From: Candidatus Enterousia sp.
GTDB lineage: Bacteria; Pseudomonadota; Alphaproteobacteria; Rs-D84
Assembly: GCA_045592905.1 (NCBI GenBank)
Contig: JAZNVR010000020.1
Coordinates: 3,471 to 67,470, forward strand
DNA: 64,000 bases
Direction of reading: 5' to 3'
Below are positions 6,373 through 53,589 of this stretch, one piece after another; within the stretch, counting starts at the first letter, position 1; each line of letters starts with the position of its first letter. Both the position numbers and the translations under genes were made by a program. The notes beneath the pieces were generated by a model. That model ran no database searches, was not told the DNA's origin, and saw only the letters and a program-made list of their open reading frames with translations.

Positions 6373-6471
6373 ATAAGTCGTGGCTTGCACCTTATGGTAC
6401 ACACGTATGATTTTATTTGAAACTTTGGACTTTTTGTATTAGTATCAACCTTGAAACGATAGGAATTTATT

Positions 6472-23974: not shown

Positions 23975-24108
23975 TTTAGTGTTTGGTTAATACTTTTGTA
24001 AAAACACTTACATAGCACTTCAATAATCACAATATAAACATATAGTTATCTGTGATAAAATAAAAACTTTGCAATTCCAATATATCTTGATTATAATCCT
24101 AAACACTT

Positions 24109-34904: not shown

Positions 34905-35812
34905 TCATTTGCACGTGGGTGTGCATTGGCATAAATATTTGTAATTTCTGCCATATTTACCTTGGTGTATAATTGCGTTGTTGACAGGGACGCATGTCCC
35001 AACAATTCTTGCAGACTGCGTAAATCTGCCCCGCCTGCCAATAATGCTGTAGCAAATGTATGACGCAATGCATGTGGTGTTACATAATCTGGCAACTGTA
35101 AATAATGACGCAAGTTTTCAATAACTTTTTGTGCCATACGGGGCGACATCGGCAGACCACGCACACTGCGAAACAGTTCATCCATCGCATCATTTCCAAA
35201 TGGTCGCACATGAATATATCTTTCAATCGCATCCCATACCACAGGTAATACAGGCACCAATCTTTCTTTGTTACCCTTACCAACAATTCTTAGCACTTCT
35301 GGGCGACCACGAACATCCATATTACGCAAAGCCAACGCTTCGGATATACGCAATCCACAACCAAACAACAACACAACCAATGCCCAATCACGTGCCGCCA
35401 ACCATGGTTCACCACCATCAATATCACGAATGGCACCACGCATATGTTCAACATCAATAGGATCAATTGCCTTAGATAACTTTCGTGGAACCTTGGGCGA
35501 AGATATTAACCCAATGGCATCATTTTTTACATTGTAATTGCGTGCCAAGAATTTATAAAAACCACGTAATGATGATAACGCACGTGCCGTTGATTTATGC
35601 GACAGACCACGTCGCTGGCGGTTGGCCAAATACGAACGAAAACATAATGTATCAGGACGCGACATATCTGCAACAAATGGTGGTGTGCCCAAGAATTCCT
35701 GATAAAACGATAAAAAGTCGTGAATATCCGCATCATATGCCGTTGCAGTATGTGACGAATAATTCTTCGTCTGGATTAAATAGTCAATAAATTCAACAAC
35801 AACTTCGTTCAA
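34901..35812 (-). CDS. xerC: Chromosomal tyrosine recombinase XerC
   Basis: S.HT..AY..D, ARALSSLRGF, ARD..L..L.GCGLRISE, GKGNKER, TPHALRHTFAT.LL..GADLRSLQELLGHASLSTTQLY. Confidence 0.9.
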   Translation of the reverse strand: MNEVVVEFIDYLIQTKNYSSHTATAYDADIHDFLSFYQEFLGTPPFVADMSRPDTLCFRSYLANRQRRGLSHKSTARALSSLRGFYKFLARNYNVKNDAIGLISSPKVPRKLSKAIDPIDVEHMRGAIRDIDGGEPWLAARDWALVVLLFGCGLRISEALALRNMDVRGRPEVLRIVGKGNKERLVPVLPVVWDAIERYIHVRPFGNDAMDELFRSVRGLPMSPRMAQKVIENLRHYLQLPDYVTPHALRHTFATALLAGGADLRSLQELLGHASLSTTQLYTKVNMAEITNIYANAHPRAND

Positions 35813-39521: not shown

Positions 39522-39945
39522 TGTTATAATTGAAACATTACCAAATGTTGCGCCAAAACATGTTGCAAGAATTATTGAATTGGTAAAATCTGGTTTCTAT
39601 GACGGATTAACATTTCATCGTGTGATTGATGGTTTTATGGCACAGACTGGTTGCCCATTGGGAAATGGTACCGGTGGCAGTGGTGTTAAAATTCCAGCCG
39701 AGTTTTCAAGTGAACATTTTTCACGTGGCACAGTTGGTATGGCACGTGCATTTGATATCAATTCTGCGGATTCACAGTTCTTTATTTGCTTTGATGATTG
39801 CGGTTTTTTGGATGGGAAATATACAGTTTGGGGACGTGTTGTGTCAGGAATGGAACATGTTGATAATATTAAACGAGGCGACGAATTTGATAACGGCCAT
39901 GTTGAAAACCCAGACAAAATTATAAGGATGGAAGTTATCGATTAA
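39487..39945 (+). CDS. Cyclophilin-type peptidyl-prolyl isomerase
   Basis: APKHV, FYDGLTFHRVIDGFMAQTG.P.G.GTGG, GMARA...NSADSQFFI, YTVWGRV. Confidence 0.95.
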   Translation: MSKIQMTLTNGNVIIETLPNVAPKHVARIIELVKSGFYDGLTFHRVIDGFMAQTGCPLGNGTGGSGVKIPAEFSSEHFSRGTVGMARAFDINSADSQFFICFDDCGFLDGKYTVWGRVVSGMEHVDNIKRGDEFDNGHVENPDKIIRMEVID

Positions 39946-39970
39946 AAAATCCCCCAAACGGGGGATTTTT
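39946..39970. terminator. Bidirectional terminator at the end of the virion module
   Basis: aaaatcccccaaacgggggattttt between convergent genes. Confidence 0.8.
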
Positions 39971-40229
39971 ATTTTATTACTGCACCTTTTATCAAAGTCA
40001 GGTCTTCTTTGATATCGTCAATTTTAATTTGTATTCTGGCAATACCCGTTTCCAAGATTGTCGTTCTGTTTTCTAGGGCGGTTATGCGGGCATCAACACG
40101 TTCCAGTTCCAGAACAGAAAAATCCTGTTTGGCAGCCCAATAAATTACACCTGCAACAAACGCGATTAAAAACCAACTTTCACGCAGGAATTCCAGCAAT
40201 CCATTTACTGGCTTGTGTTGCGATTTCAT
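39969..40229 (-). CDS. Small TM + coiled-coil protein (holin/hemolysin XhlA-like)
   Basis: Hydrophobic WFLIAFVAGVIYW followed by heptads RITALENR...IKEDL. Confidence 0.5.
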   Translation of the reverse strand: MKSQHKPVNGLLEFLRESWFLIAFVAGVIYWAAKQDFSVLELERVDARITALENRTTILETGIARIQIKIDDIKEDLTLIKGAVIK

Positions 40230-40429
40230 GACTTGTCCCCCATGCCCCTGGATACCAGCGTTTCAATTTGATGCACCAAAAAACGCTGTGATTCCAATGA
40301 ACGCAATTCTGAATCTGTGGCGTTTGGACCCAAAACACGTTCAATTGTTGTTTTACGTAAATGTTCCAAAACACGCTGACCAGACACACCAGAAAATGTC
40401 TTGGCATATGCAATTTCTATATCTGTCAT
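40226..40429 (-). CDS. Bbp19-like small phage protein
   Basis: YAKTFSG.SGQRVLEHLR......LGP...LR.LESQR.LV..IE; directly after the portal gene. Confidence 0.7.
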   Translation of the reverse strand: MTDIEIAYAKTFSGVSGQRVLEHLRKTTIERVLGPNATDSELRSLESQRFLVHQIETLVSRGMGDKS

Positions 40430-41661
40430 AACGCACCCCCAAGAACACTTTCAATTGTTGTCATTTGTGCAATTGGTGCAATATATTTTAATTCTGCATC
40501 ACTGTTTAGTTTAATCGGTTCAATCAATCCACGTGATGACAATATTTGCAATCCACGATCACATAACGGTCTGATGAATTCATGCAGCATGCGTCCATAT
40601 GTTGCACCCAAAATTCGCATCATATCTGCGTTGCGTGCCATAATTTCTGTTGCTGTCATTTCTTTCTCGCTTAACAGCCCCAACCTGTCCGCCAACAGTG
40701 CATGACGAATTCTGTCACGCAGATCTTTTAATATAATCTGTGAAACATCAAAGTCAGCCGCACTGTTCAATGGGGTCAGACCAGATGAACCAACAGCCTT
40801 TGGTATAATCGCCCCAGGGGTCAGATTGATATTATTCAGATTTATAACCCCATCATCATCTGCCTGCCAGATGCCAGACACTGCGATTGTTGCGTTTTTA
40901 AGCACCAGTTCAACAACCTTGTTCGCAGTTTTAATATCTGGTAATGCACGCATAATTGGACTGCGACCATATATTTCCCCACTGACCACAGACCAGCGGA
41001 ATATAATATATGGATTGGTTTCAAATATGCCAGTTGATACAATATTGTTTTCAATATCACCACCAACATCCAACCACGCTGTAAATTCTGTGCCAACCAG
41101 GCTTTGTACCAATTTCAATTGCATTTCTGGGTTATTTTTGATTGATTCACGTATATTTGATGGCGGTGTCCATGTTGGATATTGTTCCATAACTTCACGT
41201 GCAGACATTGAAGTCGTATGAAATACAGCATTTGGTAAAACTGCAATATCAGACATCGGAATCGCTGTAAAATTAAATGCAGATGATGTACCAATTGGGT
41301 TTTGTGCCATAAACAAGCATGCTGTTCCCAATGTAACCAAATCCATATAACACTGATGCACAGTTGTATAAAAATTAGAATCGTTTAAATGTGCCCGCAA
41401 AACAGATGTTGCATAATCTGCATCTGGTGATAATTCACTTTCTGGAACCAGTTGCAACCACATTGATTCTGGTGGTGTCAACAATGTATAGATAGACGCA
41501 GCCAAATTATCTGCAGCATCTGATGCAGTGGCATCATACAATGTGGCCAAATCATCATCTGATGTTGGCATTGTATATCTGCGTGCATCATCCCAACGCT
41601 TTAACCATGGGTTGCGTAAATCCAAGGCACGTTTATAAAGTTGCTGTAAGTTATTTTGCAT
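40426..41661 (-). CDS. Portal / head-to-tail connector (T7 gp8/Bbp21-like), compact
   Basis: LYDATA.DA.DNLAA.....LTPP...W, DLVTLGTA, PYIIFRW....GEIYGRSP.MRALPDIKTAN, MTATEI. Confidence 0.88.
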   Translation of the reverse strand: MQNNLQQLYKRALDLRNPWLKRWDDARRYTMPTSDDDLATLYDATASDAADNLAASIYTLLTPPESMWLQLVPESELSPDADYATSVLRAHLNDSNFYTTVHQCYMDLVTLGTACLFMAQNPIGTSSAFNFTAIPMSDIAVLPNAVFHTTSMSAREVMEQYPTWTPPSNIRESIKNNPEMQLKLVQSLVGTEFTAWLDVGGDIENNIVSTGIFETNPYIIFRWSVVSGEIYGRSPIMRALPDIKTANKVVELVLKNATIAVSGIWQADDDGVINLNNINLTPGAIIPKAVGSSGLTPLNSAADFDVSQIILKDLRDRIRHALLADRLGLLSEKEMTATEIMARNADMMRILGATYGRMLHEFIRPLCDRGLQILSSRGLIEPIKLNSDAELKYIAPIAQMTTIESVLGGAL

Positions 41662-41689
41662 TTTTTATCCTTTGTTTTGTGTTATTTTT

Positions 41690-42529
41690 CTAAATCTTGA
41701 AATTTGTGTTTGCATTAAATGTTTTAACGCCATACCCCAATGGCCGAACAGGTATTGGTGTTTGTGCAATCGCACCGGCAACCGCATCCAATCCGTCATC
41801 ATGACCCGCATACGCAACAGGCGACCAACCAATCATTTCTGCAATCAATGGTGTTTTCTGGACACGTATATGTGCGTATAAATGCCCCGTACTTAGAACC
41901 GGTTCAATCGCAGACAATATGCGTTCTGATTTTGCACGATTATTTGCCACACGATTTACATATATGTTGCATCCACGACGCATGGCACAATCACGCATAA
42001 TTTCTGGCAATCCGCCACCAATACCATTTGTTTCAATTGTAATTTTGTTTAATCTATGCTGATACATATAATCAATTATCATGTCGCATTGGCAGGACAA
42101 TGGAAATTGTTCTGAATCAGGCACCGTTAAATACAAAATATCATGAATAAAAACATGTCTATTTTTATCATCACGATATAACAAAACACATGCACTGCCA
42201 TCACGTTTACTGCGACCGGTTGACGGATCCCAATACAACATGCAACCAGAAATTATGTATTCGCCAATTTTGGCTGTTCTGGGTTCAAATTCTTCGTTAT
42301 ACAAATGCAATCCGCCTGGATCAAGTCTGGCACGTTCTGGCGAAATAAATTCTAGCATCATTTGTGCAGAAAAATGTCGTGGCCCAACCGTTTGACGCAT
42401 TTGGTCTATTTTTTCGTGCGGAAACAATTCTGGCCATACCGGTTTTCCGGCATTATCCACGATTGGAATTTTTAATATTTTATATCCTGATAAAAAAGGC
42501 GTTGAAAAAGCATTTTTTTCATATAACAT
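41690..42529 (-). CDS. Terminase large subunit, C-terminal nuclease half
   Basis: Probable start MLYEK at 42529; WPELF, F.AQMM, YWDPS...DGSA, IETNGIG, K..RI..AIEP, HDDGLDA. Confidence 0.82.
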   Translation of the reverse strand: MLYEKNAFSTPFLSGYKILKIPIVDNAGKPVWPELFPHEKIDQMRQTVGPRHFSAQMMLEFISPERARLDPGGLHLYNEEFEPRTAKIGEYIISGCMLYWDPSTGRSKRDGSACVLLYRDDKNRHVFIHDILYLTVPDSEQFPLSCQCDMIIDYMYQHRLNKITIETNGIGGGLPEIMRDCAMRRGCNIYVNRVANNRAKSERILSAIEPVLSTGHLYAHIRVQKTPLIAEMIGWSPVAYAGHDDGLDAVAGAIAQTPIPVRPLGYGVKTFNANTNFKI

Positions 42530-42551
42530 TGAACCAAAGAAGGAATTTGAC

Positions 42552-44117
42552 ATGGACTTTACCCCTAAAACTTTACCTACGAATTTAGAAGCCGAACAGG
42601 CTGTGTTGGCTGCTGTTTTAATGAACAATCGTGCACTAGAAAACGTGTCAGAATTCCTGCGGGCAGAACATTTTTCACATCCTGCACACCAAGAAATATA
42701 TAAACTAGCAAACCGTCAATTTTCAGCCGGCATTCCATTTGATATAATCACTGCAAAAAATTACTTGGATCAACAAGGTGTTCTGGAAACTGTTGGTGGT
42801 GTTGATTACCTGACACAGTTATCTGGTGCTGGTGCAACTGTTGTGAACATTGAACAATATGCAAGAATTGTATACGAACATGCAATGCGACGTAACTTAA
42901 TTGCATTGGGTCAAGATATTACTGACAAGGCATTTATTGAAGATTTAGATAATCCTGTATCACGACAAATTGAAATTGCGGAACAAAAACTGTTTGATAT
43001 GGCAACAATTGGTTCATCTGAACGTGAAGTTACATCTATTAAATCTGCATTAGATGCCGCACTGAAAGAAGTTGAAATCGCATATAAGGCAGATGGTCAA
43101 CTGTCTGGTTTAACAACAGGATTGTCTGCACTGGATAAATCAATCAGTGGGTTGCATAATTCTGACTTAATTATTATTGCTGGACGACCAGCGATGGGAA
43201 AAACCACACTGGCAACGAACATTGCATTTAATGCCGCAAATGCAATTATGTACGGTCGTGCAAATCCAAACTACAAGGGTGTTGTTGCATTTTTTAGTCT
43301 TGAAATGTCATCATCACAATTGGCTGCACGTATATTGTCATCTCAATCCAAGGTACCTGCATCCGCAATGCGTGAAGGGGCTGTAACAGATGAAGATTTT
43401 ATGAAGATGACACAGTATTCCGCTGCAATCAGCAAAATACCATTGTTTATTGATGATACACCCGGAATGTCCGTCCCAATGATTCGCACACGTGCCAGAC
43501 GCTTGGCACGCAAGCATGGCGGAATCGCACTGATTGTAATTGACTATCTGCAATTAATGACATCACCTGGTGGCAAAAAAAGCGATAATCGTGTCCAAGA
43601 AATTTCTGAAATAACACGTGGTCTGAAAATGCTGGCCAAAGACTTAAATGTTCCTGTTATCGCATTGTCCCAGTTATCACGTAGTGTTGAATCACGTGAT
43701 GACAAACGTCCACAATTGGCAGACTTGCGTGAATCAGGTTCTATTGAACAAGATGCTGATATTGTTATGTTCACATATCGTGAAGAATATTATCTGCAAA
43801 ATCGTGACCCATCAGAAAGAATGTCTAATACAACAAACAACGCAATGGTTGAAAGTTGGCAAAAACGTTTAGAACGTGCACGTGGCAAAGCAGATATTAT
43901 CATTGGCAAAAACCGACATGGTCGCCCAGAAACCGTACGAACAGCGTTCTTTGGCGATTACAGTCTGTTTGACAATCTGGATGAATTCCAAGCACGTGGC
44001 GAAAATGAATTCGCACAGCCTGCACCAACTGTTTCTGCGTCAACGTTTGCACCAAATCCTGACACAATGCCAACAGCGATTGACCCAGATGAAATACCAG
44101 ACGATATTCTAATGTAA
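42552..44117 (+). CDS. dnaB: Replicative DNA helicase
   Basis: P.NLEAEQAVL, AGRPAMGKT, FSLEMS, IDYLQL, LSQLSR.VESR.DKRPQLADLRESGSIEQDAD, KNRHG. Confidence 0.97.
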   Translation: MDFTPKTLPTNLEAEQAVLAAVLMNNRALENVSEFLRAEHFSHPAHQEIYKLANRQFSAGIPFDIITAKNYLDQQGVLETVGGVDYLTQLSGAGATVVNIEQYARIVYEHAMRRNLIALGQDITDKAFIEDLDNPVSRQIEIAEQKLFDMATIGSSEREVTSIKSALDAALKEVEIAYKADGQLSGLTTGLSALDKSISGLHNSDLIIIAGRPAMGKTTLATNIAFNAANAIMYGRANPNYKGVVAFFSLEMSSSQLAARILSSQSKVPASAMREGAVTDEDFMKMTQYSAAISKIPLFIDDTPGMSVPMIRTRARRLARKHGGIALIVIDYLQLMTSPGGKKSDNRVQEISEITRGLKMLAKDLNVPVIALSQLSRSVESRDDKRPQLADLRESGSIEQDADIVMFTYREEYYLQNRDPSERMSNTTNNAMVESWQKRLERARGKADIIIGKNRHGRPETVRTAFFGDYSLFDNLDEFQARGENEFAQPAPTVSASTFAPNPDTMPTAIDPDEIPDDILM

Positions 44118-44195
44118 TTTTGTATGATTTTACTTGCACATTTTCTAAAAATTGACTAATATTTTGTCAAGAAATAAATTTTTAGGAGCATTGCC

Positions 44196-45203
44196 ATGGC
44201 ACAAGAAGAAATCATTTTTCCAAATAATATACGCAACATTCGGTTGGCGGCTGGTATGAAAATGACTGAATTAGCACGCAGAACTGGATTATCATTATCC
44301 GCAGTATCCAAAATTGAAAAAGGCGTTCGTCGCTTAAACCAAAAACAATTGTTAAATATTTGCAGTATCTTGGGTTGCAAATTATCAGATATATTTATCA
44401 AGGAATCTGACGACGTTGCAAATCAATGGCAAAATGAAATCAAACGCCGTATGACAGATAACGAAGATAACGGTCTGAAAGTATTCGGCAGTGGATTACG
44501 CAAAATCCGCCAAATCAAAGGTAAAACTATCGCACAGGCTGCCAAAGATGCTGGAATGACATTGTCTGTATATCATAAAATAGAAGTTGGACAACGTGAA
44601 ATCTATAAAAATGAAATTGAACCGTTGGCAAAATCATTCGCAATGGGCGTTGAAGATATGTTTCAACAAATCGCAGATTTATATAAATCTGGTGAATTAA
44701 ACAAACATATTAACAAGGTCAAAGAACGTGTCAAATCTGTTTTAATTCCAGGCAGTCCAATATCTGGTATTGACATGCAAGGCAGCGTTTTTGGTGCAAA
44801 ATTATATGACAGTGCACGAAAAAAATTAGTTCCTGTGTTTGGTATGCCTGCTGGAAAGGCAATTGCATTCAAAAAGTCTGACGAAACAATGATTGTCGCA
44901 CCAATCGCACTGGAAGGTCGCAAAGGTGTTTATGCTGTTGTTCCAAACACAAAAAGACTGGGTGGATTTATACCAGAAAAATCATACGTATTTGTTGATG
45001 CATTAACACCCGCAACCCCAGGCGATTTAGCGGTATGTGTTGACCCAGATTTTGATAACTTGAATTCAGAAACAACAACAACCGCACATATCGTAAGTGT
45101 TCGTCAAGATTCCAAAGGCAATTTGTATGGCCATATTGCAGCACCAGAAGAAAAAATTACTGGCAAACTAATGCACAAGGTCATAATGATTGTTACAGAA
45201 TAA
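44196..45203 (+). CDS. Regulator with two XRE HTH domains and a degenerate S24-like C-terminus
   Basis: IRNIR..AGM...ELA..TGLS.SAVSKIEKG and LRKIR......AQAA..AGM..SVY.KIEVG; C-terminal VPVFG..AG...YAV...VFVD...PGD. Confidence 0.8.
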   Translation: MAQEEIIFPNNIRNIRLAAGMKMTELARRTGLSLSAVSKIEKGVRRLNQKQLLNICSILGCKLSDIFIKESDDVANQWQNEIKRRMTDNEDNGLKVFGSGLRKIRQIKGKTIAQAAKDAGMTLSVYHKIEVGQREIYKNEIEPLAKSFAMGVEDMFQQIADLYKSGELNKHINKVKERVKSVLIPGSPISGIDMQGSVFGAKLYDSARKKLVPVFGMPAGKAIAFKKSDETMIVAPIALEGRKGVYAVVPNTKRLGGFIPEKSYVFVDALTPATPGDLAVCVDPDFDNLNSETTTTAHIVSVRQDSKGNLYGHIAAPEEKITGKLMHKVIMIVTE

Positions 45204-45233
45204 ATCACCCTATATGGAGAGAGAGGGTATACC

Positions 45234-45875
45234 ATGAAAGCAAAAATTCGTGCAACCGCACAAAAGTTACTAAATCTGTATCGCCAAGCACATGTAATTG
45301 TTGGTGGCTGGGGTACGGTTAACCCAATCTTTGTTGACGAAGCGGACGATAATGTAATTCATGAAATTCAAGATTTACCAACTGGTAAAATGCTGGTGCG
45401 TCATATTGAAAATCTGCGTAGTGGCAAAACCCCAATGGATTCAATTGAACGTGAATTGTTACCATATGGCGGCATGATGGTTGGCGAAGAAATTACCCCG
45501 ATTAATCTGACAGCAGAACAATGGTCTGAATTAGAATATGGACTTGAAAACTTTGTTCCAAACCAAGAAGGACTTGATGCATTCACTTCATTGGATGTTA
45601 TTAAGCATTTTGGCGAACAATGGCCCGAAATAATTAGTTCTGTTATACAATCAAAAAAACATTTACAAGATAAATGGGCTGCTGTAAAGCATACTTTTAA
45701 CGCATACAGACTGTGGGTATCTGCAAATGAGGTTATATCAAAACCATTAACGGAACGTGTTCGTGCCCAAGTTCAAGCAGATATGCCAGAATACGAAACA
45801 TACTTGCCGATGTTTGGCGATGCAGGTAATAAACTGTTAACAAAATTACGCACATTTATCAGCAGCATTGGTTAA
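45234..45875 (+). CDS. Hypothetical protein
   Basis: 213-aa ORF with GAGGG RBS; its stop overlaps the TerL-N stop in TTAA. Confidence 0.7.
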   Translation: MKAKIRATAQKLLNLYRQAHVIVGGWGTVNPIFVDEADDNVIHEIQDLPTGKMLVRHIENLRSGKTPMDSIERELLPYGGMMVGEEITPINLTAEQWSELEYGLENFVPNQEGLDAFTSLDVIKHFGEQWPEIISSVIQSKKHLQDKWAAVKHTFNAYRLWVSANEVISKPLTERVRAQVQADMPEYETYLPMFGDAGNKLLTKLRTFISSIG

Positions 45876-46477
45876 TCACTTGAATCGGTACGATATATCG
45901 TATCATATGTATGCGGTGTTCCAATATAAATCATTGTTCCCGATGGCGATAAGATAAAATCTAGTTCACGCAACCGTTCTCGCAGACTTTCTCGTTTGAC
46001 AGCAGTGTTTGATGTATTTGGCACTTCTACGTCATCACATATTATTAAATCTGCACGCATACCTGTTATATTTCCATAAACGCCCTGACAAATAACAGAC
46101 GGTTCACGAATACCTATTGGTCTGTTAATTGTTATGCGTCCTGTGGCCCACTCTTTTTTATTTGTTGGAATTAATTCAGAACAAAACGTATGATTTTCCA
46201 AAATATGTTTTATATGTGCTACCATACGGGTTGCCAACGTAGATTCTGCGGACAATATCAATATTCTGGTTTCTGGCCGCAAGTATAAAACACATGCCGC
46301 AAACACACCAACAACCGTAGATTTTCCAGAATGCCGAAACGCCATTAATAAACCACGATGTGGATTATGTGTCCAAACATCAACAAAAAAACGCATTATA
46401 GTACGATGATGTTTGGGTGTTTTTAATCCCAGAATTCTGTTCCATTCATCTAAAAAATTATAAAACTCCGTAATCAT
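45872..46477 (-). CDS. Terminase large subunit, N-terminal ATPase half
   Basis: Walker A MAFRHSGKST, ITGMRAD, Walker B IICDDVE, motif III YIGTPH; ends 12 residues later. Confidence 0.85.
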   Translation of the reverse strand: MITEFYNFLDEWNRILGLKTPKHHRTIMRFFVDVWTHNPHRGLLMAFRHSGKSTVVGVFAACVLYLRPETRILILSAESTLATRMVAHIKHILENHTFCSELIPTNKKEWATGRITINRPIGIREPSVICQGVYGNITGMRADLIICDDVEVPNTSNTAVKRESLRERLRELDFILSPSGTMIYIGTPHTYDTIYRTDSSD

Positions 46478-47009
46478 CGTTATTTTCATTTGGTGCAGGT
46501 TCAGAAACAAATCCGTAATCATTTATCAATACAGGCAACGCATTTTTTAGAACACTGACCAGGTTACGATACAGCCCCAGCACCGCCCCACCGGACAATT
46601 TGTCTTCTATGACCTGTAATGTATAATCCATTTGTTTTTTTATTTCATCATGTTTGTTGACCCATTCTAATAAATCAACATCTATGTTTTGTATGTCTTG
46701 AAATGCAGCCAGCAGAAAATTGAAATCCGAATTCAAGTGTTCTGGATCAATGATTTTTGTTGGCTGATAATCAATTACACGTGACAGTGATATCTGCCGA
46801 AATATATCTATCTTGGTATCAGCAGTTGGTGCAACATCAAAAACGACATTTCCACCAGAAAAATCATCATTTGGTATAATTGAAAAATTTTGATTTTCAC
46901 AATCTATGACATCATCAATAGCAACATGAATATCTGCAATTTGAAAGAAAGGAAAAGAAAACGCAAATTCTGTTGTATTACCATCTGAAACATAAGATAT
47001 TTTATACAT
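46458..47009 (-). CDS. T7 gp17-like tail-fibre N-terminal (adaptor) protein
   Basis: Y.SDGNTTEF.F.FPFF...DI.V, GG.VVF..AP......I.R, LN.DF..L....QD; ends with two DYG motifs. Confidence 0.8.
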   Translation of the reverse strand: MYKISYVSDGNTTEFAFSFPFFQIADIHVAIDDVIDCENQNFSIIPNDDFSGGNVVFDVAPTADTKIDIFRQISLSRVIDYQPTKIIDPEHLNSDFNFLLAAFQDIQNIDVDLLEWVNKHDEIKKQMDYTLQVIEDKLSGGAVLGLYRNLVSVLKNALPVLINDYGFVSEPAPNENNDDYGVL

Positions 47010-47041
47010 ACAATTCCCCCTTGGTTTGATTAGAATAAATA

Positions 47042-47386
47042 TTATCCGACCAAATCATCAAGTCTGGACAATAACGATTTTAATAAATTTGGTTTTTTTA
47101 CATTTGTGTTTTTCAACTTCATTAGATTGCTACGCTTTTTTTCATCATATGGTGCTGATGTTTCTGATTTTAATCTGCGTAGTACTGCACCCTCGCTTAT
47201 ACCACCAGACATTCCAGATGCACCAAATTTTGCACGTTGTGTTGATAAAACTTTATTTATTAAATTCGTTTTTTCTTTTTCATCTTGTGCCATCTGTTCC
47301 AATATTTCTTTACGTTGTGAATTTACATTTTTTTTAGCATCTTTGTAATCCAACAATTCTGTTACATCAGATACAATTTGTCCCAT
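47042..47386 (-). CDS. Virion-associated protein (internal virion protein-like)
   Basis: Coiled N-terminus, QRAKFGASGM..G.S..VL; lies after the tail tube genes. Confidence 0.55.
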   Translation of the reverse strand: MGQIVSDVTELLDYKDAKKNVNSQRKEILEQMAQDEKEKTNLINKVLSTQRAKFGASGMSGGISEGAVLRRLKSETSAPYDEKKRSNLMKLKNTNVKKPNLLKSLLSRLDDLVG

Positions 47387-47406
47387 TTTTTATCCTTTTT
47401 ATTATT

Positions 47407-49119
47407 TTATATCGTATACCAACCATGAACCGTTACAGACAAAATGGTTACAGGATATGGTTCTGAACCATGTATTGTCCACATTGGATTCATCGTATTA
47501 TCTATTGTTCCCAGCAAATTAACAAACACATCGCCATTATATCCGTTACTGGATGCATCATATACTTCGTTCGGTAATGTTATACGATGCTGATTAATGT
47601 ATATAGATTTAGTGTTAATCACACGTGCCACTACTTTTCGTACTTTGATACGACTGGCATTATGTTTTGATGAACGTAATGGCATCCCCGATGCACAAAA
47701 AGCAAAATGATATTGTCCTGCGTCAACCATTGCATTTTTATCAAAGACTTCTAAACAAATTTTGTTATTTCGTATAACAACGACATATGTTTTTTCACCA
47801 GATACCACAACAGAAATAAAACGTCCTTGGGTTTTATATTCAGACCATGCCGAAATTCCCAATGCCGCATTTTGATTTAACACCGCCAATACACCATCAT
47901 TTTTTACGACAAACAATTGACGATTTGTACCGTTATATGCCATATCAATAGGTTCATTCATTAAATGTTTTGACAATGCACACAAATCATTTGCGTTATA
48001 TTTTTCACCCAACTCATCCAAACTAAGTTCACGAATATCACGACCGTTTGCAGACATAAAAACTGTTGCTCCTTCTATCTTTTGTGGTGGCAAATGTCGT
48101 AACAAATAAGAACCAACAGATGTATGCTGTTTCACATCAACAGATGACGGTGTTAACGGTTTATTAGAAATTGCCCATTCACCAGAATTTGTTAATATCT
48201 GCAAATTATCACTGCTGACTAATGTGCGAATCTGTTGACGTTCTTGGGATTGTAATGATATGAATATTGCTTCGTCATCAAGTCCCGTACCAGTATCAAA
48301 ATTTTTGTGTCGTCCAACTTGCGACATCCAAACACCACTGGGCCAACTGGGCGTTCCACCAAACACCAATCTGTCCTGATGAAACGTAATACAAGATGGC
48401 CAACCACGACGATTGCTGAATGCGGACTCATACCATTGTGCAACAGGATTTTCTGGTCTGGTATAAACGCCATTTATATATGCAACAACCTGTGTTGGAC
48501 TGATATATTCTGTAATCAACCATTGATTGTCCAATAAATACAAGCGACTGCCCACACTGTCTGGTGTCCAAAAATTTGTATTCGTTGTAAACGTTGCATA
48601 ATTGTTTCCCTGGGCATTTGTATCAACTGTAATTAATACACCAGATGCATCATCAAATTTTACGAACGGCAAATTAATTGTCATATTTTCATTACCGTCA
48701 AAAATAAATCTGGATAACGAAAATCCTGTATCTGTTTTTTCCAATACATATGGCGGATAATTTGGATGCACAAAAATCATTGTATCAAAGCGTTGTGCAT
48801 ATTGAATATTTTTTACATCATCATACGCCCATGGCGATAACATATCTTTGACACGAATATTATCATGATATATATAAACACGTTGATTCATTAATGCCAA
48901 AACATATTCTTTGCCATCTGCCACAGAAAAAGATATTAATCTGGCATTATCTGGCAATTGATCCACAGTGGTTAGTCCCCATCTGCGTGATAAAGCACCG
49001 CTGGCCATAACGTCCATATTTTCTAGTTTTGACAATCCATTTATTCCATCACGTGCATAAAATTCCGAAGAAACTTCACCTTGTGCAAAAGAATTTTGTG
49101 TTTTTATAAATTCTGCCAT
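47407..49119 (-). CDS. Tail tubular protein B / nozzle (T7 gp12-like)
   Basis: Q.SF..GEVS, G.L.RR.G, YAQ..DT...VHP..PP, GWPS..TFHQDRLVFGG, W.S.VG...NF. Confidence 0.85.
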   Translation of the reverse strand: MAEFIKTQNSFAQGEVSSEFYARDGINGLSKLENMDVMASGALSRRWGLTTVDQLPDNARLISFSVADGKEYVLALMNQRVYIYHDNIRVKDMLSPWAYDDVKNIQYAQRFDTMIFVHPNYPPYVLEKTDTGFSLSRFIFDGNENMTINLPFVKFDDASGVLITVDTNAQGNNYATFTTNTNFWTPDSVGSRLYLLDNQWLITEYISPTQVVAYINGVYTRPENPVAQWYESAFSNRRGWPSCITFHQDRLVFGGTPSWPSGVWMSQVGRHKNFDTGTGLDDEAIFISLQSQERQQIRTLVSSDNLQILTNSGEWAISNKPLTPSSVDVKQHTSVGSYLLRHLPPQKIEGATVFMSANGRDIRELSLDELGEKYNANDLCALSKHLMNEPIDMAYNGTNRQLFVVKNDGVLAVLNQNAALGISAWSEYKTQGRFISVVVSGEKTYVVVIRNNKICLEVFDKNAMVDAGQYHFAFCASGMPLRSSKHNASRIKVRKVVARVINTKSIYINQHRITLPNEVYDASSNGYNGDVFVNLLGTIDNTMNPMWTIHGSEPYPVTILSVTVHGWYTI

Positions 49120-49130
49120 TTTTTCCCCCA

Positions 49131-49649
49131 TTAAAATCGTGCACTAACCAATGAAAAATCAGTTATCCCACCAGATACAGATGTTGTACTGTCTATGTAT
49201 TTAGCGTTTTGCAATTCAGATTCATACAGTGCAACCAATGTACGAAACACAGTATTATCACCCAACAATGGCATGCAAAATTCCATTGCAAGACGTGTTG
49301 CAACCAATTCAGCAAAATAACTGGGGAAACTTTCTGGTGCGGTTTTAACAATCGCAACAATAGAAATATTATCCATATCAGATATAATTTTGTTCCCAAT
49401 AATATTTCCTTGGGATTTTAATACACGTAAAACATTTGATGGCACTAAAAAGTTTCCATCTGTATTTTTTATTAAATCAATTTGCTGTTGTGCAAAATGC
49501 CATGGATGCAATGCCAACAGTGAATTAACAATCGTATCAAATAATGTACGTGCTAATTTCGCAGGGGCACTATCATCTGTTAAAGATTGGATTGGCGATT
49601 CCCCTAATTTTAATAATGCCATAGAACACAAATCTATTTTTGTAAGCAT
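49131..49649 (-). CDS. Tail tubular protein A / adaptor (T7 gp11-like)
   Basis: IDLCS.AL.KLGE.PI.S, LL..HPW.FA, FP.YF...V..RLA.E. Confidence 0.82.
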   Translation of the reverse strand: MLTKIDLCSMALLKLGESPIQSLTDDSAPAKLARTLFDTIVNSLLALHPWHFAQQQIDLIKNTDGNFLVPSNVLRVLKSQGNIIGNKIISDMDNISIVAIVKTAPESFPSYFAELVATRLAMEFCMPLLGDNTVFRTLVALYESELQNAKYIDSTTSVSGGITDFSLVSARF

Positions 49650-49726
49650 TTTTATCACCCCTTTATAATATTTTTAGAAAAAAACAGACCGGCAGAAAAC
49701 CGGTCTGTGCAAGATATAAAAGTATA

Positions 49727-49957
49727 TTATGCCAATGCAACAGTAGTTACATTTAATTCTGTAATATTTATTTTCTTAATCGCAGTGTTATCAGATGCAT
49801 TGATTATAATTATATCACCAATATTCATCAGTGTTTTAACATTATTAAAATATCCGTTTGCAGTAATTGTTGACAACGTTTCATCTGCACTGTAATGCCA
49901 CAATGTAAATCCATTTGCATATGCAATAACTGACAAGTTTTTATTTTGAAATGCCAT
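49727..49957 (-). CDS. Small capsid-associated (decoration-like) protein
   Basis: LSVIAYANGFTLWHY...GYFN...GD.I; directly after the capsid gene. Confidence 0.6.
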   Translation of the reverse strand: MAFQNKNLSVIAYANGFTLWHYSADETLSTITANGYFNNVKTLMNIGDIIIINASDNTAIKKINITELNVTTVALA

Positions 49958-50003
49958 GTTTTTTCCTTTTTTTATTTTTATTTGATTTTATTGTATTATT
50001 GAC

Positions 50004-50831
50004 TTATGCAGATTGTGTATCAGAACATTTAACACGTACGATACCATCACCATCAATTAAAACCGCACCCTGGGACATGCTGTTGCTGATAAAGTGTGCA
50101 GCACGTTCACCATGCCAAGAAATATCTGTTTTAACTTCTTGACCGCATGCATGACCGATACTGGATGCATGATAAATAAAGCAGTCACGATTTGTTTCAG
50201 ACACAGGCAAACCATTATACAGAACCCATGTAATTCCCAACCATTTGCGTGCTTCACAACCATTGATTAATGGTGTTTCACTGCCAACATAATCTGCGGA
50301 AACAAATTCATCCATTGACAATAATTCATTCCACTGATGAACACCAACAACAGCAAAGCGACGGCCATCATCTGGCACATCATTTGTGTTTAATACTTCA
50401 ACAGCAGACAATATTAAATCTTTGGTTAATCCAGTTGTATAATCACCAACATTTGCTGTTGCAGTATTCATTGCAGCAACAATTAATTCATCTGTTTTGC
50501 GTCCCAATGCGTATGCACCAGCAGAAGCCACAACACGACGTTCATCAACATTTGTTTTTAATTCATCCAATGCATCAACCCAATCACCTGCGTAATAATC
50601 TTGCAGCAAGCATTCCACAGGTTCATGATTTAAATTCATAACAGGCACAATACCATGACGTGATTTTGTACTGGCGGTGCCACGACCTACTTTTTGGAAC
50701 GTAGTAGATGCACCAACGACGCCAGATTTACTGCGAACAGTTGAACGCAACTTTGTTCCCATTTGTTGATATGCCAAATGCACATCAGCTTCAAATTGTT
50801 TTACAAAAACATTATCTATTGAAATAGACAT
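50004..50831 (-). CDS. Major capsid protein (podovirus type)
   Basis: FVKQFEADVHLAYQ..G.KLR.TV, F.KVG, D.LDELK, A.ALGRK.DE.I, DVPDDG.R. Confidence 0.88.
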   Translation of the reverse strand: MSISIDNVFVKQFEADVHLAYQQMGTKLRSTVRSKSGVVGASTTFQKVGRGTASTKSRHGIVPVMNLNHEPVECLLQDYYAGDWVDALDELKTNVDERRVVASAGAYALGRKTDELIVAAMNTATANVGDYTTGLTKDLILSAVEVLNTNDVPDDGRRFAVVGVHQWNELLSMDEFVSADYVGSETPLINGCEARKWLGITWVLYNGLPVSETNRDCFIYHASSIGHACGQEVKTDISWHGERAAHFISNSMSQGAVLIDGDGIVRVKCSDTQSA

Positions 50832-50844
50832 ACAAAAATCCTTT

Positions 50845-51058
50845 TGTTAAAAATTAATTTTACTTATCAGATTTTGTGTTTTGGTTATGCAAATAATGCG
50901 CCAGAAAACAAAAATATTTGGGTCTGCGAAATGCAGATTATCCATAAAAAATATCAGTTAGACTGTGCACAAAATCTAACTGATACTTTTATAAAAAAAA
51001 GGATCTGTGTTTTACCACAGACCCTATAAAGACAAAAACCCCACTATCGCAGGGAATT
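50845..51058 (-). terminator. Series of three terminator-like hairpins upstream of the capsid gene
   Basis: ccctgc-gata-gtgggg+U5; gggtctgtg-gtaaaa-cacagatcc+U8; tatcagttaga..tctaactgata+U6. Confidence 0.65.
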
Positions 51059-51060
51059 TA

Positions 51061-51354
51061 TTATTTCTTTTTTGCACATGCTTTTTTTGCAACTGGTTTT
51101 GCAGCCACTTTTTTAACAGGTGCTTTTTTTGCAACTGGTTTTGCAGCTGGTTTTTTTGCAGGTGCTTTTTTTGCAACTGGTTTTGCAGCCACTTTTTTTG
51201 CAGGTGCTTTTTTTGCAACTGGTTTTGCAGCTGGTTTTTTTGCAGGTGCTTTTTTTCCAACTGGTTTTGCAGCCGCTTTTTTTGCAGGTGCTTTTTTTGC
51301 AGCTGGTTTTGCAGCTGGTTTTTCTGCTACTTTTTTCTTAAAAAAGAAACGCAT
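51061..51354 (-). CDS. Histone H1-like K/A/P-rich DNA-binding protein
   Basis: AGGAG RBS; KKAPAKK(P/V)AAKPVA repeats; own TTTACT-17-TAAAAT promoter. Confidence 0.8.
   Translation of the reverse strand: MRFFFKKKVAEKPAAKPAAKKAPAKKAAAKPVGKKAPAKKPAAKPVAKKAPAKKVAAKPVAKKAPAKKPAAKPVAKKAPVKKVAAKPVAKKACAKKK
51080..51330 (-). repeat. Imperfect ~42-bp coding tandem repeat in the H1-like gene
   Basis: Repeated tttttgcaactggttttgcagc...ttttttgcaggtgc. Confidence 0.85.
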
Positions 51355-51464
51355 TTCTTCTCTCCTATTTTGTTTGAAGATAGAACAAACTTTTTTTGTT
51401 CTTGTTTTATATTTTATATTAAACATAAAATTTAGTAAAGAAGAAAAGTAAAAAAATCATATAT

Positions 51465-52121
51465 TTATGAATATAATTTTTTGAAACCATTTTCAATTTT
51501 TCTGATATATTCTGTATCATTATCACGCCAATATTTTGGATCACGCATCATGCGTCTTAAATCATCATCTGTTAAATTTTGTGTTTCATTTTTATCTGTT
51601 TTTACATTTGGTTCCATAGATTGCATCATCTTATACACGCTTTGTATTCCCTGGGGTGTAGAGCACAGTTCATTAAATGCATCATGTGGTAAAAATTTTT
51701 CACCGAATGCATTAATTGCATTTAATGCGTCCTTCATTTTTTCTGTTCCGCCAAAGAAATTTTTCAATTCATTTATTGCACCTGTTTCATTTTTCACAGA
51801 AAACAAATCAGATATAACTGGCGACAAAAAATTATTTGCGATGTCATAAATTTTTTCTACTTGTGATTTTGTTAATCCGATTTTCAAGAATTGTTCACGC
51901 AGATTTTCATCATCATACAAATCATTTTTTGGATAATCATCTGCACAATCTGGCACACCGATTGCCCGATTAAATTTTCTTTTTGCATCATCATCTGAAT
52001 TTTCTGTTGGCACAGAAATCATTGTTCCGATTTTTTTCTCTAATTCAGTATATGATTTTATCAAAGAATCAGAATTTAACGTACCATCTTCATTCAGAAA
52101 TTTTTCTGGTATATTATCCAT
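51465..52121 (-). CDS. Capsid assembly scaffolding protein (T7 gp9-like)
   Basis: IPEKF...DG......L.KSY.ELEKK; GVP...DDY; C-terminal LRRMMRDPKYWRD....I..I..GF.KLY. Confidence 0.8.
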   Translation of the reverse strand: MDNIPEKFLNEDGTLNSDSLIKSYTELEKKIGTMISVPTENSDDDAKRKFNRAIGVPDCADDYPKNDLYDDENLREQFLKIGLTKSQVEKIYDIANNFLSPVISDLFSVKNETGAINELKNFFGGTEKMKDALNAINAFGEKFLPHDAFNELCSTPQGIQSVYKMMQSMEPNVKTDKNETQNLTDDDLRRMMRDPKYWRDNDTEYIRKIENGFKKLYS

Positions 52122-52311
52122 TGTTTTTTCCTTTTGTTTCATTTGATTTACGCAAGAAATAAATCCCCCCCAATGTAAAGACTGTTTGCAACATAGTAAA
52201 CACATCTGTATCACCAACCAAGTACGCTGCCACAGCAGAAAGTATCCCTGTTCCAGAAATTATATACGTACGATATCCGGTCAGATATCCGCCCTTGAAA
52301 AACTTTTGCAT
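52114..52311 (-). CDS. Holin-like small 2-TM protein
   Basis: L.GYRTYII....ILSAVAAYLVG...TLGGIYFLR plus basic tail. Confidence 0.6.
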   Translation of the reverse strand: MQKFFKGGYLTGYRTYIISGTGILSAVAAYLVGDTDVFTMLQTVFTLGGIYFLRKSNETKGKNNG

Positions 52312-52331
52312 TAAAACACCTTTTTTAAGTA

Positions 52332-52742
52332 TTACAGATAGAACAGAAAACCATCTATATCTGCGATATATCCACGTGCGATGGCCCATTGTGGCATAGT
52401 ATCAGCCGCATGAAATTTTATTGCACCCCGACATGCATCATCCAGTCCCCCCATTAACATACGCTGTGCGACACGCACGCACATTTGGAATTTACGGTTA
52501 TTCGCATTCACATTTAATTTTTGATATTTATCTGATGTTACATTCAGTGCATCAAACACAGATTTATCTGTAATAACATCTGCGATGGCCCGACCTGATT
52601 TATCTGAAATATTTTTTATCATAGAAGTCATTGCTTCCACCAGTGTCAGCGATATTGCATCTGTTTGTGCGTATACGACACGTGCGACTTTATATGCCAG
52701 TGATGCGGACACATCTGGATTTTTTATTATTGTTAATTGCAT
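52332..52742 (-). CDS. SleB/Hydrolase_2-like cell-wall hydrolase, apparently degenerate
   Basis: ARVVYAQT (canonical ART.YxEA), D...GA.KFHA...P.WA......IDGFLFY. Confidence 0.7.
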   Translation of the reverse strand: MQLTIIKNPDVSASLAYKVARVVYAQTDAISLTLVEAMTSMIKNISDKSGRAIADVITDKSVFDALNVTSDKYQKLNVNANNRKFQMCVRVAQRMLMGGLDDACRGAIKFHAADTMPQWAIARGYIADIDGFLFYL

Positions 52743-52762
52743 ATCTTTAATTGCCTTTTGGT

Positions 52763-52874
52763 AAAAAAAGTCCCTGTGCGGACACACAGGGAATAAAAAA
52801 ACCACACATATCGTGTGGGCACAATCTGTACTGTTTATGTGCAATATAGTATCATATTTTTCATTAAAAGTCAA
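52763..52874 (-). promoter_or_regulatory. Virion operon promoter followed by a two-terminator leader
   Basis: TTGACT-17-TACTAT; ccacac-gatat-gtgtgg+U7; tccctgtg-tgtccg-cacaggga-c-U7. Confidence 0.75.
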
Positions 52875-52908: not shown

Positions 52909-53589
52909 TTACAGACTTATTTCATCGCCATACACCAGTAAATATCGTGTATCACGTCGCAGAACCAGCGCACCATTTTCGTTTATTCCGACCAATTGTG
53001 CGATTTCCCCCTGATATTTAACAGGTTTATTAATACATACGGCCAATTCTGTCCATTTATCACGCACAGCCCTAAAATCTGCATTACGCCATTTATTTAT
53101 ATTACGCATCAGTCTGTTCAGTAATTCTGTCAGTGGTGTTTCTGCATAATTATCCAACTTGGTTGTTTTATACTTATCAACAGTTGGGTTTGTATTTACA
53201 TTTATACCGATTCCGACGACGACGAACCGTCCAGTATATTCAATCAAGATTCCTGCGATTTTTTTACCATCCACCAGAATATCATTTGGCCATTTTATTT
53301 CAGGATGTGCCCCAAATGATGCGATTGATTCAGCCACTGCCACCGCCACAGCATACGACAAACGTGGATCACGTTCTGGGGATTCAAAGATAAAACTGAC
53401 ATATAAATTACCATGGTGCGACACCCAGTTTCTGCGATATCTGCCCCGACCGGCCGACTGTGCAGCGGCCAGCACCACTGTTTTATCAGTTGCCCGCCCT
53501 GCATTAATTAATTCGTGTGCATAGTCCTGGGTACTGGGGATTTTATCAAACGATATTAATTTATAATTTGCCAATTTTGTACACCCCAT
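52909..53589 (-). CDS. birA: Biotin--protein ligase (no HTH)
   Basis: STQD, QSAGRGR..RNW.S..GNLY, IKWPNDI..GKKIAGILIE, GIGIN. Confidence 0.93.
   Translation of the reverse strand: MGCTKLANYKLISFDKIPSTQDYAHELINAGRATDKTVVLAAAQSAGRGRYRRNWVSHHGNLYVSFIFESPERDPRLSYAVAVAVAESIASFGAHPEIKWPNDILVDGKKIAGILIEYTGRFVVVGIGINVNTNPTVDKYKTTKLDNYAETPLTELLNRLMRNINKWRNADFRAVRDKWTELAVCINKPVKYQGEIAQLVGINENGALVLRRDTRYLLVYGDEISL

Follow-up and report, generated by a model that had tools for sequence, protein, structure and literature searches.

In the articles cited below, the well-studied gene transfer agents (GTAs) of Alphaproteobacteria are the RcGTA-like elements and BaGTA; characterized GTAs are few in general. 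Here, we describe a cluster of podovirus-type genes in Candidatus Enterousia sp., a member of the uncultured alphaproteobacterial order Rs-D84, which comprises gut bacteria with genomes below about 1 Mb (PMC12306168). The cluster, hereafter the module, lies at positions 39969-52874 of a stretch of 64,000 nucleotides (the window: assembly GCA_045592905.1, contig JAZNVR010000020.1, positions 3,471 to 67,470), where co-oriented minus-strand genes for virion, packaging and lysis proteins stand between birA and a cyclophilin gene. On balance, it is probably a particle system of the GTA kind, derived from a podovirus, domesticated and passed on vertically, and not a prophage. Its domestication is well supported by the comparisons given below, and from the genes that it keeps we infer that it would package and transfer DNA.

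RcGTA (Rhodogtaviriformidae) is similar to the module in that both are alphaproteobacterial, phage-derived structural clusters which are vertically inherited, are under purifying selection, lack replication and integration genes and include lysis genes (PMC9254644, PMC9662315). The multi-locus organization of RcGTA is also seen in the wider family of the module, and both systems are kept in very small genomes, including those of reduced Rickettsiales and Holosporaceae (PMC9254644, PMC9662315). But RcGTA is siphovirus-like, with a head of the HK97 Phage_capsid type (PF05065) and a long tail, whereas the module has a PF12236 portal, a PF19821 capsid, a tail tube of the gp11/gp12 type and a large terminase (TerL) in two parts. 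Membership of RcGTA was rejected: PF05065 has no match in the 97%-complete source genome, while the control matches in Caulobacter.

BaGTA (Bartogtaviriformidae), from Bartonella, is likewise a domesticated alphaproteobacterial cluster, of about 14 kb and 11-13 genes, that co-diverges with its host and in which host genes and phage-derived genes are mixed over a larger region (PMC9662315, PMC3610622). Its gene order is a different one: TerL (447 amino acids), portal (620 amino acids), two genes, further genes and tail fibre (PMC3610622), as opposed to scaffold, capsid, tail, TerL and portal here; the run of TerL, portal and, within 5 kb, capsid that would mark a BaGTA-like element is absent from the module. 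Besides, BaGTA relies on a phage-derived run-off replication origin, and nothing comparable was seen in the module. This system was considered owing to one carrier of the wider family (G434), with a 2.5-Mb genome and a locus of 38% GC; Sulfitobacter phages are said to be nearest to the TerL of BaGTA, and no Sulfitobacter phage is among the matches listed in a capsid search of a phage collection. Membership of BaGTA was set aside by published gene order and protein sizes (PMC3610622), i.e., by description and not by protein sequences.

A third system, FpGTA of Faecalibacterium prausnitzii, is a GTA-like gut element described as "most likely podovirus-like", with two loci and genes for head, tail, fibre, holin and endolysin (PMC12946183). 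Its host, unlike that of the module, is a Firmicute; the two are compared by description only, and the available portion of that article does not mention Rs-D84. The available portion of the article that places Enterousia in Rs-D84 (PMC12306168) makes no mention of phage, capsid or GTA. In the main texts of the open-access and bioRxiv literature, no description was found of the module, of a T7-like GTA in Alphaproteobacteria or of phage-like genes in Enterousia or Rs-D84.

Among phages, the relative gene order of the module is that of T7-order marine podophages (Pelagibacter phage EXVC031P Hodr, Methylophilales phage MEP301 and Vibrio phages such as 1.257.O). Hodr comes closest among isolated phages: its capsid and portal are 44% and 33% identical to those of the module, and its scaffold, Bbp19-like protein and nozzle are homologous. 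These five are the only Hodr open reading frames (ORFs) with homologues in the module, and two others weakly match other contigs of the source genome. Marine podophages differ from the module in their size (32-35 kb), their early and replication genes, a single TerL of 501 amino acids, a nozzle of 918 amino acids and internal proteins of 783 and 1247 amino acids. Beyond the two weak matches, no homologue of the additional phage genes was found in the source genome.

In order of transcription, the module consists of genes for a hydrolase, a two-helix membrane protein, a scaffold, an H1-like protein, the capsid, a 76-residue protein, tail tubes A and B, a gp14-like protein, a fibre and the ATPase part of TerL; then, after three plus-strand genes, those for the nuclease part of TerL, the portal, a Bbp19-like protein and an XhlA-like protein. 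Families were assigned from Pfam, PHROG and NCBIfam profile matches to the window proteins. The assignments are strong for (i) portal; (ii) capsid; (iii) tubes A and B; (iv) scaffold; (v) Bbp19; and (vi) both TerL parts, and those of hydrolase, gp14-like, H1-like, XhlA-like, holin and decoration proteins are weak or positional suggestions. The set of a T7-order virion is present, namely gp8 portal, gp9 scaffold, capsid, gp11/gp12 tube, gp14-like protein, N-terminus of gp17 and TerL with a T7-type nuclease; the gp14-like and fibre-domain calls are below cut-off in Pfam and are backed by PHROGs and position. The genes and the two flanks named in an initial annotation of this DNA were confirmed at their stated coordinates. 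GC content in and around the module is 0.34-0.41, similar to that of the remaining window.

The module has a single copy in the source genome and is widespread in the order. A portal gene was found in 24/24 sampled members of the genus and in 37 of 41 relatives, the four non-matching genomes being 63-92% complete; the capsid profile matches 295 of 328 Rs-D84 genomes, 211 of the 224 high-quality ones, in 28 of 30 genera. Best matches of the capsid are 85-96% identical in species-representative genomes, and capsids of different Rs-D84 families share 65-73% identity; portals are 72-87% identical inside the genus and 42-47% identical to those of other families. Gene order is that of the window in all seven full Enterousia loci, including dnaB, the helix-turn-helix (HTH) gene and the unassigned gene inside TerL, and birA at the end, while an eighth locus is truncated where its contig stops. 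Across 87 distinct Enterousia loci (L035 and L100 were excluded from the counts, their gene tables duplicating other loci), each gene is present where covered and of near-constant length, with the exceptions of the fibre adaptor and of locus L064. Metagenome contigs from four studies also cover the region, many of them at least 99% alike, and bridge both the junction of the unassigned gene with the TerL ATPase gene and the overlapping starts of the TerL nuclease gene and dnaB; all come from total-DNA metagenomes and show presence and junctions only. The patchiness among close relatives that would be expected of a mobile element was not observed.

The module co-diverges with its host across Rs-D84. 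In 27 genomes, patristic distances of portal and rpoB are correlated with r = 0.975, a value reached by 0 of 2000 Mantel permutations (a count that overstates independence, because the genomes are themselves relatives), and the two trees agree on 15 of 24 splits. The internal topology of family f3 (Rs-D84 families other than Enterousia's own are given by our numbers) is identical in the two trees, families f5 and f6 are grouped in both, and both contain the same subclades of Enterousia; branches are about 1.6 times as long for portal as for rpoB. The trees left out L011, with a stop in the portal gene at a contig end, and G033, whose rpoB is cut by a contig end. The tree congruence with core genes, proposed as a check in the initial annotation, holds for rpoB.

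Selection was gauged by the ratio of non-synonymous to synonymous substitution rates (dN/dS), calculated with a Nei-Gojobori script on protein-guided codon alignments, pooling the five closest phylogenetically separate pairs (dS of about 0.26-0.68). The values are 0.022 for capsid, 0.029 for portal, 0.037 for the TerL ATPase part, 0.056 for the gp14-like protein, 0.059 for the protein in decoration position, 0.060 for fibre, 0.077 for tube A, 0.084 for tube B, 0.090 for scaffold, 0.091 for the TerL nuclease part and 0.103 for hydrolase. With dnaB at 0.042 and birA at 0.048, purifying selection on the module (0.02-0.10) is as strong as on these host genes, and no relaxation is seen.

As for prophage hallmarks, no integrase or phage replication gene was found, serine recombinases not having been searched for by family. 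The source genome has just two tyrosine recombinases, the Xer pair. The initial annotation had reported no integrase; the nearer of the pair, XerC-like (34901-35812), is 4.2 kb away from the module. No att-like direct repeat brackets the module, no tRNA gene lies between window positions 30000 and 63551, and no homologues of Hodr early genes adjoin the module. The absence of att sites and of replication genes nearby also agrees with that annotation, dnaB being the single replicative helicase of the host. A search of PLSDB with the capsid gave only four distant matches, of about 25% identity and none alphaproteobacterial.

An integrated prophage was rejected for lack, within the families searched, of an integrase, att repeats and replication and lysogeny modules, and because the genes are not patchy among close relatives. 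A broader form of the same idea holds that the module is a decaying, defective prophage remnant, or else a still-mobile temperate phage or satellite that infects these bacteria again and again. Virus-prediction pipelines do call it viral: IMG/VR contains at least 583 stretches with capsid relatives, many of them filed as "viral genomes" of 10-14 kb, and a 5-kb GenBank entry labelled "Bacteriophage sp." (MT838907.1) encodes a capsid with 63% identity. Furthermore, the closest isolated phages are pelagiphage Hodr and its relatives. Among the best 80 of the IMG/VR stretches many are of 10-14 kb with Enterousia-type module genes, many of them starting exactly at the capsid gene, and these stretches and MT838907.1 are probably pieces of cellular genomes wrongly entered as viral. 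Among isolated phages, capsid identity goes no higher than 44%, selection is not relaxed, locus and gene order are constant in every Enterousia species examined, divergence follows rpoB, the host's only dnaB lies inside the module, and integrase, att repeat, tRNA and replication genes were not found. A remnant or a mobile phage is, on this evidence, very improbable.

In all the traits that can be read from sequence, the system is GTA-like: (i) phage-derived structural genes reside in a cellular genome and co-diverge with the host; (ii) within the limit just given for serine recombinases, no means of autonomous replication, integration or excision was found; and (iii) the genes are under purifying selection at cellular rates. 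The earlier proposal of a host-owned, podovirus-derived particle that is not a prophage is supported by synteny, co-divergence, selection and the missing marks of a prophage.

The capsid gene (50004..50831, minus strand, as are all module genes) encodes a BPP-1/T7-like Phage_capsid_2 protein of the HK97 fold family (PF19821, E 7.5e-71), and the portal gene (40426..41661) a head-to-tail connector of the T7 gp8 type, C-terminally shortened to 411 amino acids (PF12236, E 3.8e-82). The scaffold (51465..52217) is a capsid assembly protein of the T7 gp9 type (PF05396, 37.1 bits; cut-off 27.1). Next to the capsid gene, in the position of a head-decoration gene, a 76-residue protein (49727..49957) matches phrog_18004, of unknown function (E 5.9e-13), and is present in 85/85 covered loci. 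The Bbp19-like protein (40226..40429; PF25181, 36.5 bits against a cut-off of 25) is a small phage protein whose homologue in Hodr is placed between portal and scaffold.

The tail genes comprise tube A, or adaptor, of the T7 gp11 type (49131..49658; PF17212, 25.4 bits with a cut-off of 22.3; phrog_394, E 3e-32) and tube B, or nozzle, a compact protein of 574 amino acids of the T7 gp12 type (47407..49131; phrog_376, E 9.3e-91). They are followed by a possible small internal virion protein, gp14-like (47042..47386), with a weak match to PF24072 (22 bits, cut-off 27); it occurs in 81 of 82 covered loci and hardly varies in length (114-115 amino acids). The short tail fibre (46458..47009; 183 amino acids) is made up of an N-terminal adaptor of the T7 gp17 type and some 70 further residues (phrog_21412, E 3.6e-11; PF03906, 19.9 against a cut-off of 25.2).

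Three genes are putatively related to lysis. The first gene of the module encodes a cell-wall hydrolase-like protein, presumed to be an endolysin (52332..52874; PF07486, Hydrolase_2, 25.7 bits, cut-off 27). Its true start is probably near 52742, because terminator-like hairpins of birA lie inside the long ORF and a version of 136 amino acids recurs in other species; homologues of this hydrolase stand at the TerL end in modules of other Alphaproteobacteria. The two-helix small membrane protein (52114..52389; about 65 amino acids from an internal Met) is presumed to be a holin from its position beside the hydrolase and from two hydrophobic stretches read by eye; it has no family match in profile searches, is present in 66/66 covered loci, many of the ORFs having 62-65 amino acids, and shows a dN/dS of 0.071. 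The last gene of the module (39969..40229) encodes a membrane/coiled-coil protein of 86 amino acids with a weak likeness to the lysis-associated XhlA (PF10779, E 0.0087; phrog_1193, E 3.9e-4), found in 8/8 Enterousia loci with a dN/dS of 0.062.

The flanks are the cyclophilin gene (39487-39945) and birA (52909-53589). A bidirectional terminator-like hairpin at 39945-39970 parts the XhlA-like gene from the cyclophilin gene, and strong intergenic terminator-like hairpins stand after the decoration-position gene (49708-49684), after the H1-like gene, after birA (52818-52771) and at the cyclophilin end. The scan for such signals is at chance overall (52 promoter-like sites where 58 were expected, and 13 terminator-like sites where 10 were expected); the hairpins are a hint of highly expressed head genes and of the borders of the module. 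A motif of 27 nucleotides is shared by the regions before the portal, gp14-like and decoration-position genes (41659-41685, 47384-47410 and 49955-49981, respectively). On the coding strand it reads as a ribosome site of the AAAGGA type, then a run of A, then ATG.

The initial annotation took TerL as one intact gene, which it is not. The ATPase part (45872..46522; 216 amino acids; PF03237, 25.6 bits, cut-off 22) and the RNase H-like nuclease part (41690..42628; PF22530, 27.7 bits) are two ORFs which split phrog_38 cleanly, the former covering positions 270-459 (E 8.7e-43) and the latter 468-704 (E 1e-31), and no portion of the profile is lost between them. The nuclease part probably starts at an internal Met near residues 26-34. 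As in single-chain relatives, the first part keeps the Walker A, Walker B and GTPH (coupling) motifs and the second the acidic nuclease motifs, with WDPS, ETNGIG and DDGLDA. Nuclease and ATPase parts are present in 72/72 and 81/81 covered loci, respectively, and, by tblastn, in 33/33 and 44/44 IMG/VR contigs of the Enterousia type. In other Rs-D84 families, adjacent TerL parts are still separate ORFs in 5/5 loci, 175-380 bp apart, and family f3 has the portal gene between the two. Outside Rs-D84, TerL is one ORF of 487-571 amino acids in 7/7 mapped loci. Since the ORFs are separate in the other families and single outside the order, the split is, as far as these genomes tell, an event of the Rs-D84 stem, retained since.

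In Enterousia, the two TerL parts are separated by three plus-strand genes: dnaB, a double-HTH gene and a gene for a 213-residue protein. The first (42552..44117) is the host replicative helicase gene (NF006606, 618.6 bits, cut-off 540), exceeding the NCBIfam cut-off for the cellular enzyme and not that for phage DnaB; it is the sole dnaB of the 992,529-base source assembly and a single copy in 40 of 41 relatives. Because dnaB is distant from the module in other Rs-D84 families, the block is read as having moved into the module on the Enterousia line. The second gene (44196..45203) encodes an Xre-type regulator of 335 amino acids with HTH_3 in two stretches. It is present in 41/41 relatives, including those with no portal match, at a dN/dS of 0.042, and is a conserved host gene, tied to the module by position as far as shown. 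The 213-residue protein (45234..45875) has no Pfam, PHROG or NCBIfam match, and its gene is in 79/79 covered Enterousia loci with a dN/dS of 0.057.

Some minor observations concern this block. The best NCBIfam match of the double-HTH protein is the male-killing protein Wmk of Wolbachia WO, at the level of the HTH only and far under the cut-off (E 1.8e-9); in two family f3 genomes the gene is about 4 kb from the portal gene. One base, at window position 44109, eight bases before the dnaB stop, is absent from the contigs of all four mapped runs, and may be an assembly error in the dnaB C-terminus or a strain difference. Contigs C1 and C27 of genome G023, which is 6% contaminated, carry two copies of dnaB, HTH gene and capsid gene; probably, two strains were binned together and there was no duplication.

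Host genes also reside in or beside the module in other families. A co-oriented ftsZ adjoins the portal gene in five loci of three other families (L020, 13139-14821; L021, 4598-6349; L022, 5019-6539; L027, 6009-7760; L025, 13033-15036), and the module of family f5 also encloses genes for an AmiC-type amidase and an ABC-F protein. In Enterousia itself, PF12327 has no match in the source genome and PF00091 none in 5/5 genomes (one of them single-contig and one 100% complete), with matches for 13 of 14 controls; Enterousia may divide without FtsZ.

This interleaving of essential genes, dnaB here and ftsZ in other families, could suggest that phage genes were co-opted one by one for cellular roles, with no complete particle being made, and that the cluster persists through linkage to essential neighbours such as dnaB; the scattering of the genes in other Alphaproteobacteria would fit as well. 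But linkage is unable to keep ORFs intact for so long, and some 15 structural, packaging and lysis genes have dN/dS values of 0.02-0.10 and near-constant lengths across the 87 loci. The full set for head, tail, motor and lysis is, moreover, kept together across six families, which leaves piecemeal co-option quite improbable.

Several parts have been reduced or remodelled. The initial annotation noted that portal and nozzle look compact, and they are: portals of relatives have 483-587 amino acids and their nozzles mostly 625-693, the nozzle here having an internal deletion of about 54 alignment columns. It also reported no recognizable small terminase (TerS) or large ejection proteins, and none was found by BLAST-level searches; in particular, the internal proteins of Hodr (783 and 1247 amino acids) and its fibre have no homologue anywhere in the source genome (BLAST-level, E up to 0.001). 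Apart from small terminase and ejection proteins, the genes for head, short tail, packaging motor and lysis form a complete set, all of it under selection.

The H1-like protein (51061..51426), with lysine, alanine and proline repeats, is weakly matched by HC2 (23.1, cut-off 40) and by NF038053. Its gene stands between those for scaffold and capsid in 9/9 Enterousia loci examined and in 4/4 loci of family f3; in families f2 and f4 this position is taken by a gene for a basic membrane protein, and in Hodr by an unrelated gene, with no H1-like gene there. In four maps from elsewhere in the class with both genes on the strand (L151, L153, L156 and L168), there is no ORF of at least 60 amino acids between scaffold and capsid genes.

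Of the 81 loci covered at the fibre adaptor, 61 have it in the module and 20 lack it there. Three genomes without it have remote ORFs of 262-336 amino acids whose first 105-128 residues are 35-43% identical to the adaptor; therefore, the fibre was moved or replaced there, not lost. The remote fibre proposed at the outset is thus borne out in related species with no adaptor in the module, and it was not found in the source genome.

These changes can be read in another way, as those of a real, selected particle which was repurposed for (i) delivery or display of protein cargo; (ii) interaction with partner cells or with the animal host on which these metabolically dependent bacteria rely; or (iii) killing, DNA packaging being vestigial or serving to stabilize the head. 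The portal has lost its C-terminus and the nozzle is shortened, small terminase and large ejection proteins were not found, and a histone-like gene has been added within the block of head genes. The way of life of Rs-D84 bacteria, described as probable obligate symbionts or parasites (PMC12306168), would suit such a role, and repurposing for host interaction was raised by George et al. for RcGTA-like head genes in reduced endosymbionts (PMC9254644). Nevertheless, both TerL parts keep their ATPase and nuclease motifs, have dN/dS of 0.037 and 0.091 and are present in all covered loci, which is not easily accounted for unless DNA is cut and pumped. The module retains its tail and fibre genes, with a remote fibre where the one in the module is missing. 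No cargo-targeting feature was identified, and nothing found here bears on the tagged-cargo genes of the initial annotation. Repurposing is, in our opinion, unlikely, even if of the alternatives it is the one to be taken most seriously.

Relatives of the module are found all over the class. The capsid profile matches 71 of 301 evenly drawn Alphaproteobacteria (about 45 with E < 1e-100), almost always in one copy and in genomes of 0.9-6.5 Mb; outside Rs-D84, the family is in 68 of 298 sampled genomes. Among 20 class-wide loci, with local GC of 38%-70%, 19 have module genes in T7 order, and one has distant portal and tube matches only. This order is portal, Bbp19, scaffold, capsid, decoration, tube A, tube B and a protein of 160-170 amino acids, followed by a fibre of 363-708 amino acids, a conserved 100-residue protein in the TerS position, a single-chain TerL and the hydrolase; large internal proteins are absent from the modules mapped. 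One carrier has its module directly against pyrD and other host genes, with a holin of the RcGTA-type family PF11351 and a lysozyme encoded inside it.

These class-wide modules also look host-bound. Within 20 kb of the module, 5/5 genomes have no tyrosine recombinase, and in the five genomes tested the single portal gene is 11 kb, 14 kb, 20 kb, 153 kb and 1.5 Mb away from the capsid gene. In the three informative same-genus pairs (3/3), the module is at an orthologous locus with both flanks conserved. In a capsid-plus-TerL tree of 26 genomes, Rs-D84 forms one clade, adjoined by a 1.1-Mb genome both there and in the rpoB tree, and one clade of three genomes is identical in both trees. Module and rpoB distances are correlated class-wide with r = 0.80, and with r = 0.76 when Rs-D84 is left out (G383 was dropped from these statistics owing to a wrong rpoB ORF, with a branch length of 10). 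We read the class-wide family as the probable outcome of an old domestication or of a long host-bound history, with the Rs-D84 form as the most reduced.

On these grounds, a more specific proposal is put forward tentatively, as possible and short of probable: the module would be one branch of an undescribed, class-wide, vertically inherited family of T7-like viriforms, the third GTA lineage of Alphaproteobacteria, separate in origin from RcGTA and BaGTA. Its Rs-D84 form would have been pared down to about 10 kb of phage-derived genes and would still work with a two-polypeptide terminase and with no small terminase or ejection proteins, having gained a histone-like protein encoded among the head genes, and its particles would carry host DNA, alone or together with protein, to be exchanged among cells unable to live alone.

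Such a system might operate as follows. In a fraction of cells, scaffold and capsid protein would build proheads on the portal, and TerL ATPase and nuclease, two polypeptides since the Rs-D84 ancestor, would cut DNA and pump it in. Because there is no recognizable small terminase, packaging probably does not single out the sequence of the element itself. The H1-like lysine-rich protein may condense the packaged DNA or travel with it; tube A, nozzle, gp14-like protein and short fibre would finish a stubby tail; and holin, hydrolase and XhlA-like protein would free the particles by lysis. Without large ejection proteins of the T7 type, the DNA would probably get no further than the periplasm of the recipient, to be taken up via ComEC and DprA, both present in the source genome. 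In RcGTA, delivered DNA is taken up from the periplasm by ComEC and DprA.

A number of points weigh against the favoured reading of a GTA-type particle system. As regards the machinery, the portal of Enterousia is devoid of a C-terminal stretch found in all other families aligned; there is no recognizable small terminase, the 100-residue TerS-position gene of the wider family having no homologue in Rs-D84 that could be detected at the BLAST level; and we know of no demonstration that a TerL in two polypeptides packages DNA. Genes for ComEC and DprA are widespread, and their presence proves little. As regards conservation, locus L064 is degraded, and 13 of 224 high-quality Rs-D84 genomes have no capsid gene, so the system is dispensable and sometimes lost. 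Two IMG/VR contigs of 35-37 kb, with capsids of 61-62% identity and extra large ORFs, could be real phages of this lineage. Furthermore, deep nodes of the class-wide module and rpoB trees disagree or are not resolved (9 of 22 splits are common), so horizontal movement outside Rs-D84 is possible. The trees are quick LG+G4 searches with SH-aLRT support only, and dN/dS comes from a custom script applied to ORFs with uncurated starts. Finally, the organism is uncultured, and it and its system are known from metagenome-assembled genomes only.

The interest of the module may be said to rest on its split terminase, its interleaved essential genes and an unexpected class-wide family. If the favoured reading is true, a podovirus-derived system fixed across an order of gut bacteria widens the known origins of GTAs. 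That strong selection preserves about 10 kb of phage-derived genes in a genome of less than 1 Mb, which has shed most biosynthesis, bears on what GTAs are for. The split terminase is a natural experiment on whether a packaging motor can work with its ATPase and its nuclease in two proteins. Relatives occur in about one quarter of the sampled Alphaproteobacteria, including complete genomes of 1.9-4.6 Mb, potential test carriers if they can be grown. Misfiled module stretches in IMG/VR, for their part, probably inflate counts of gut viromes.

Other features of the window are of minor concern here. The stretch 20990-25479 encodes a 994-residue protein that matches no family and, after it, a Slam-type surface-lipoprotein assembly modifier (PF04575, E 4.1e-35); the two may form a surface lipoprotein export pair. 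At 2013-3284, an AAA_21/AbiEii-like ATPase is encoded beside a low-GC stretch (0.29 at 4-7 kb), and the region 2013-7000 may be a small defence or foreign island. Just outside the module, on either side of it, a 944-residue protein with Listeria-Bacteroides repeats (PF09479; 54832-57666) and a 574-residue protein of no convincing family (37797-39521) are candidate surface proteins, possibly linked to the module by nearness only.

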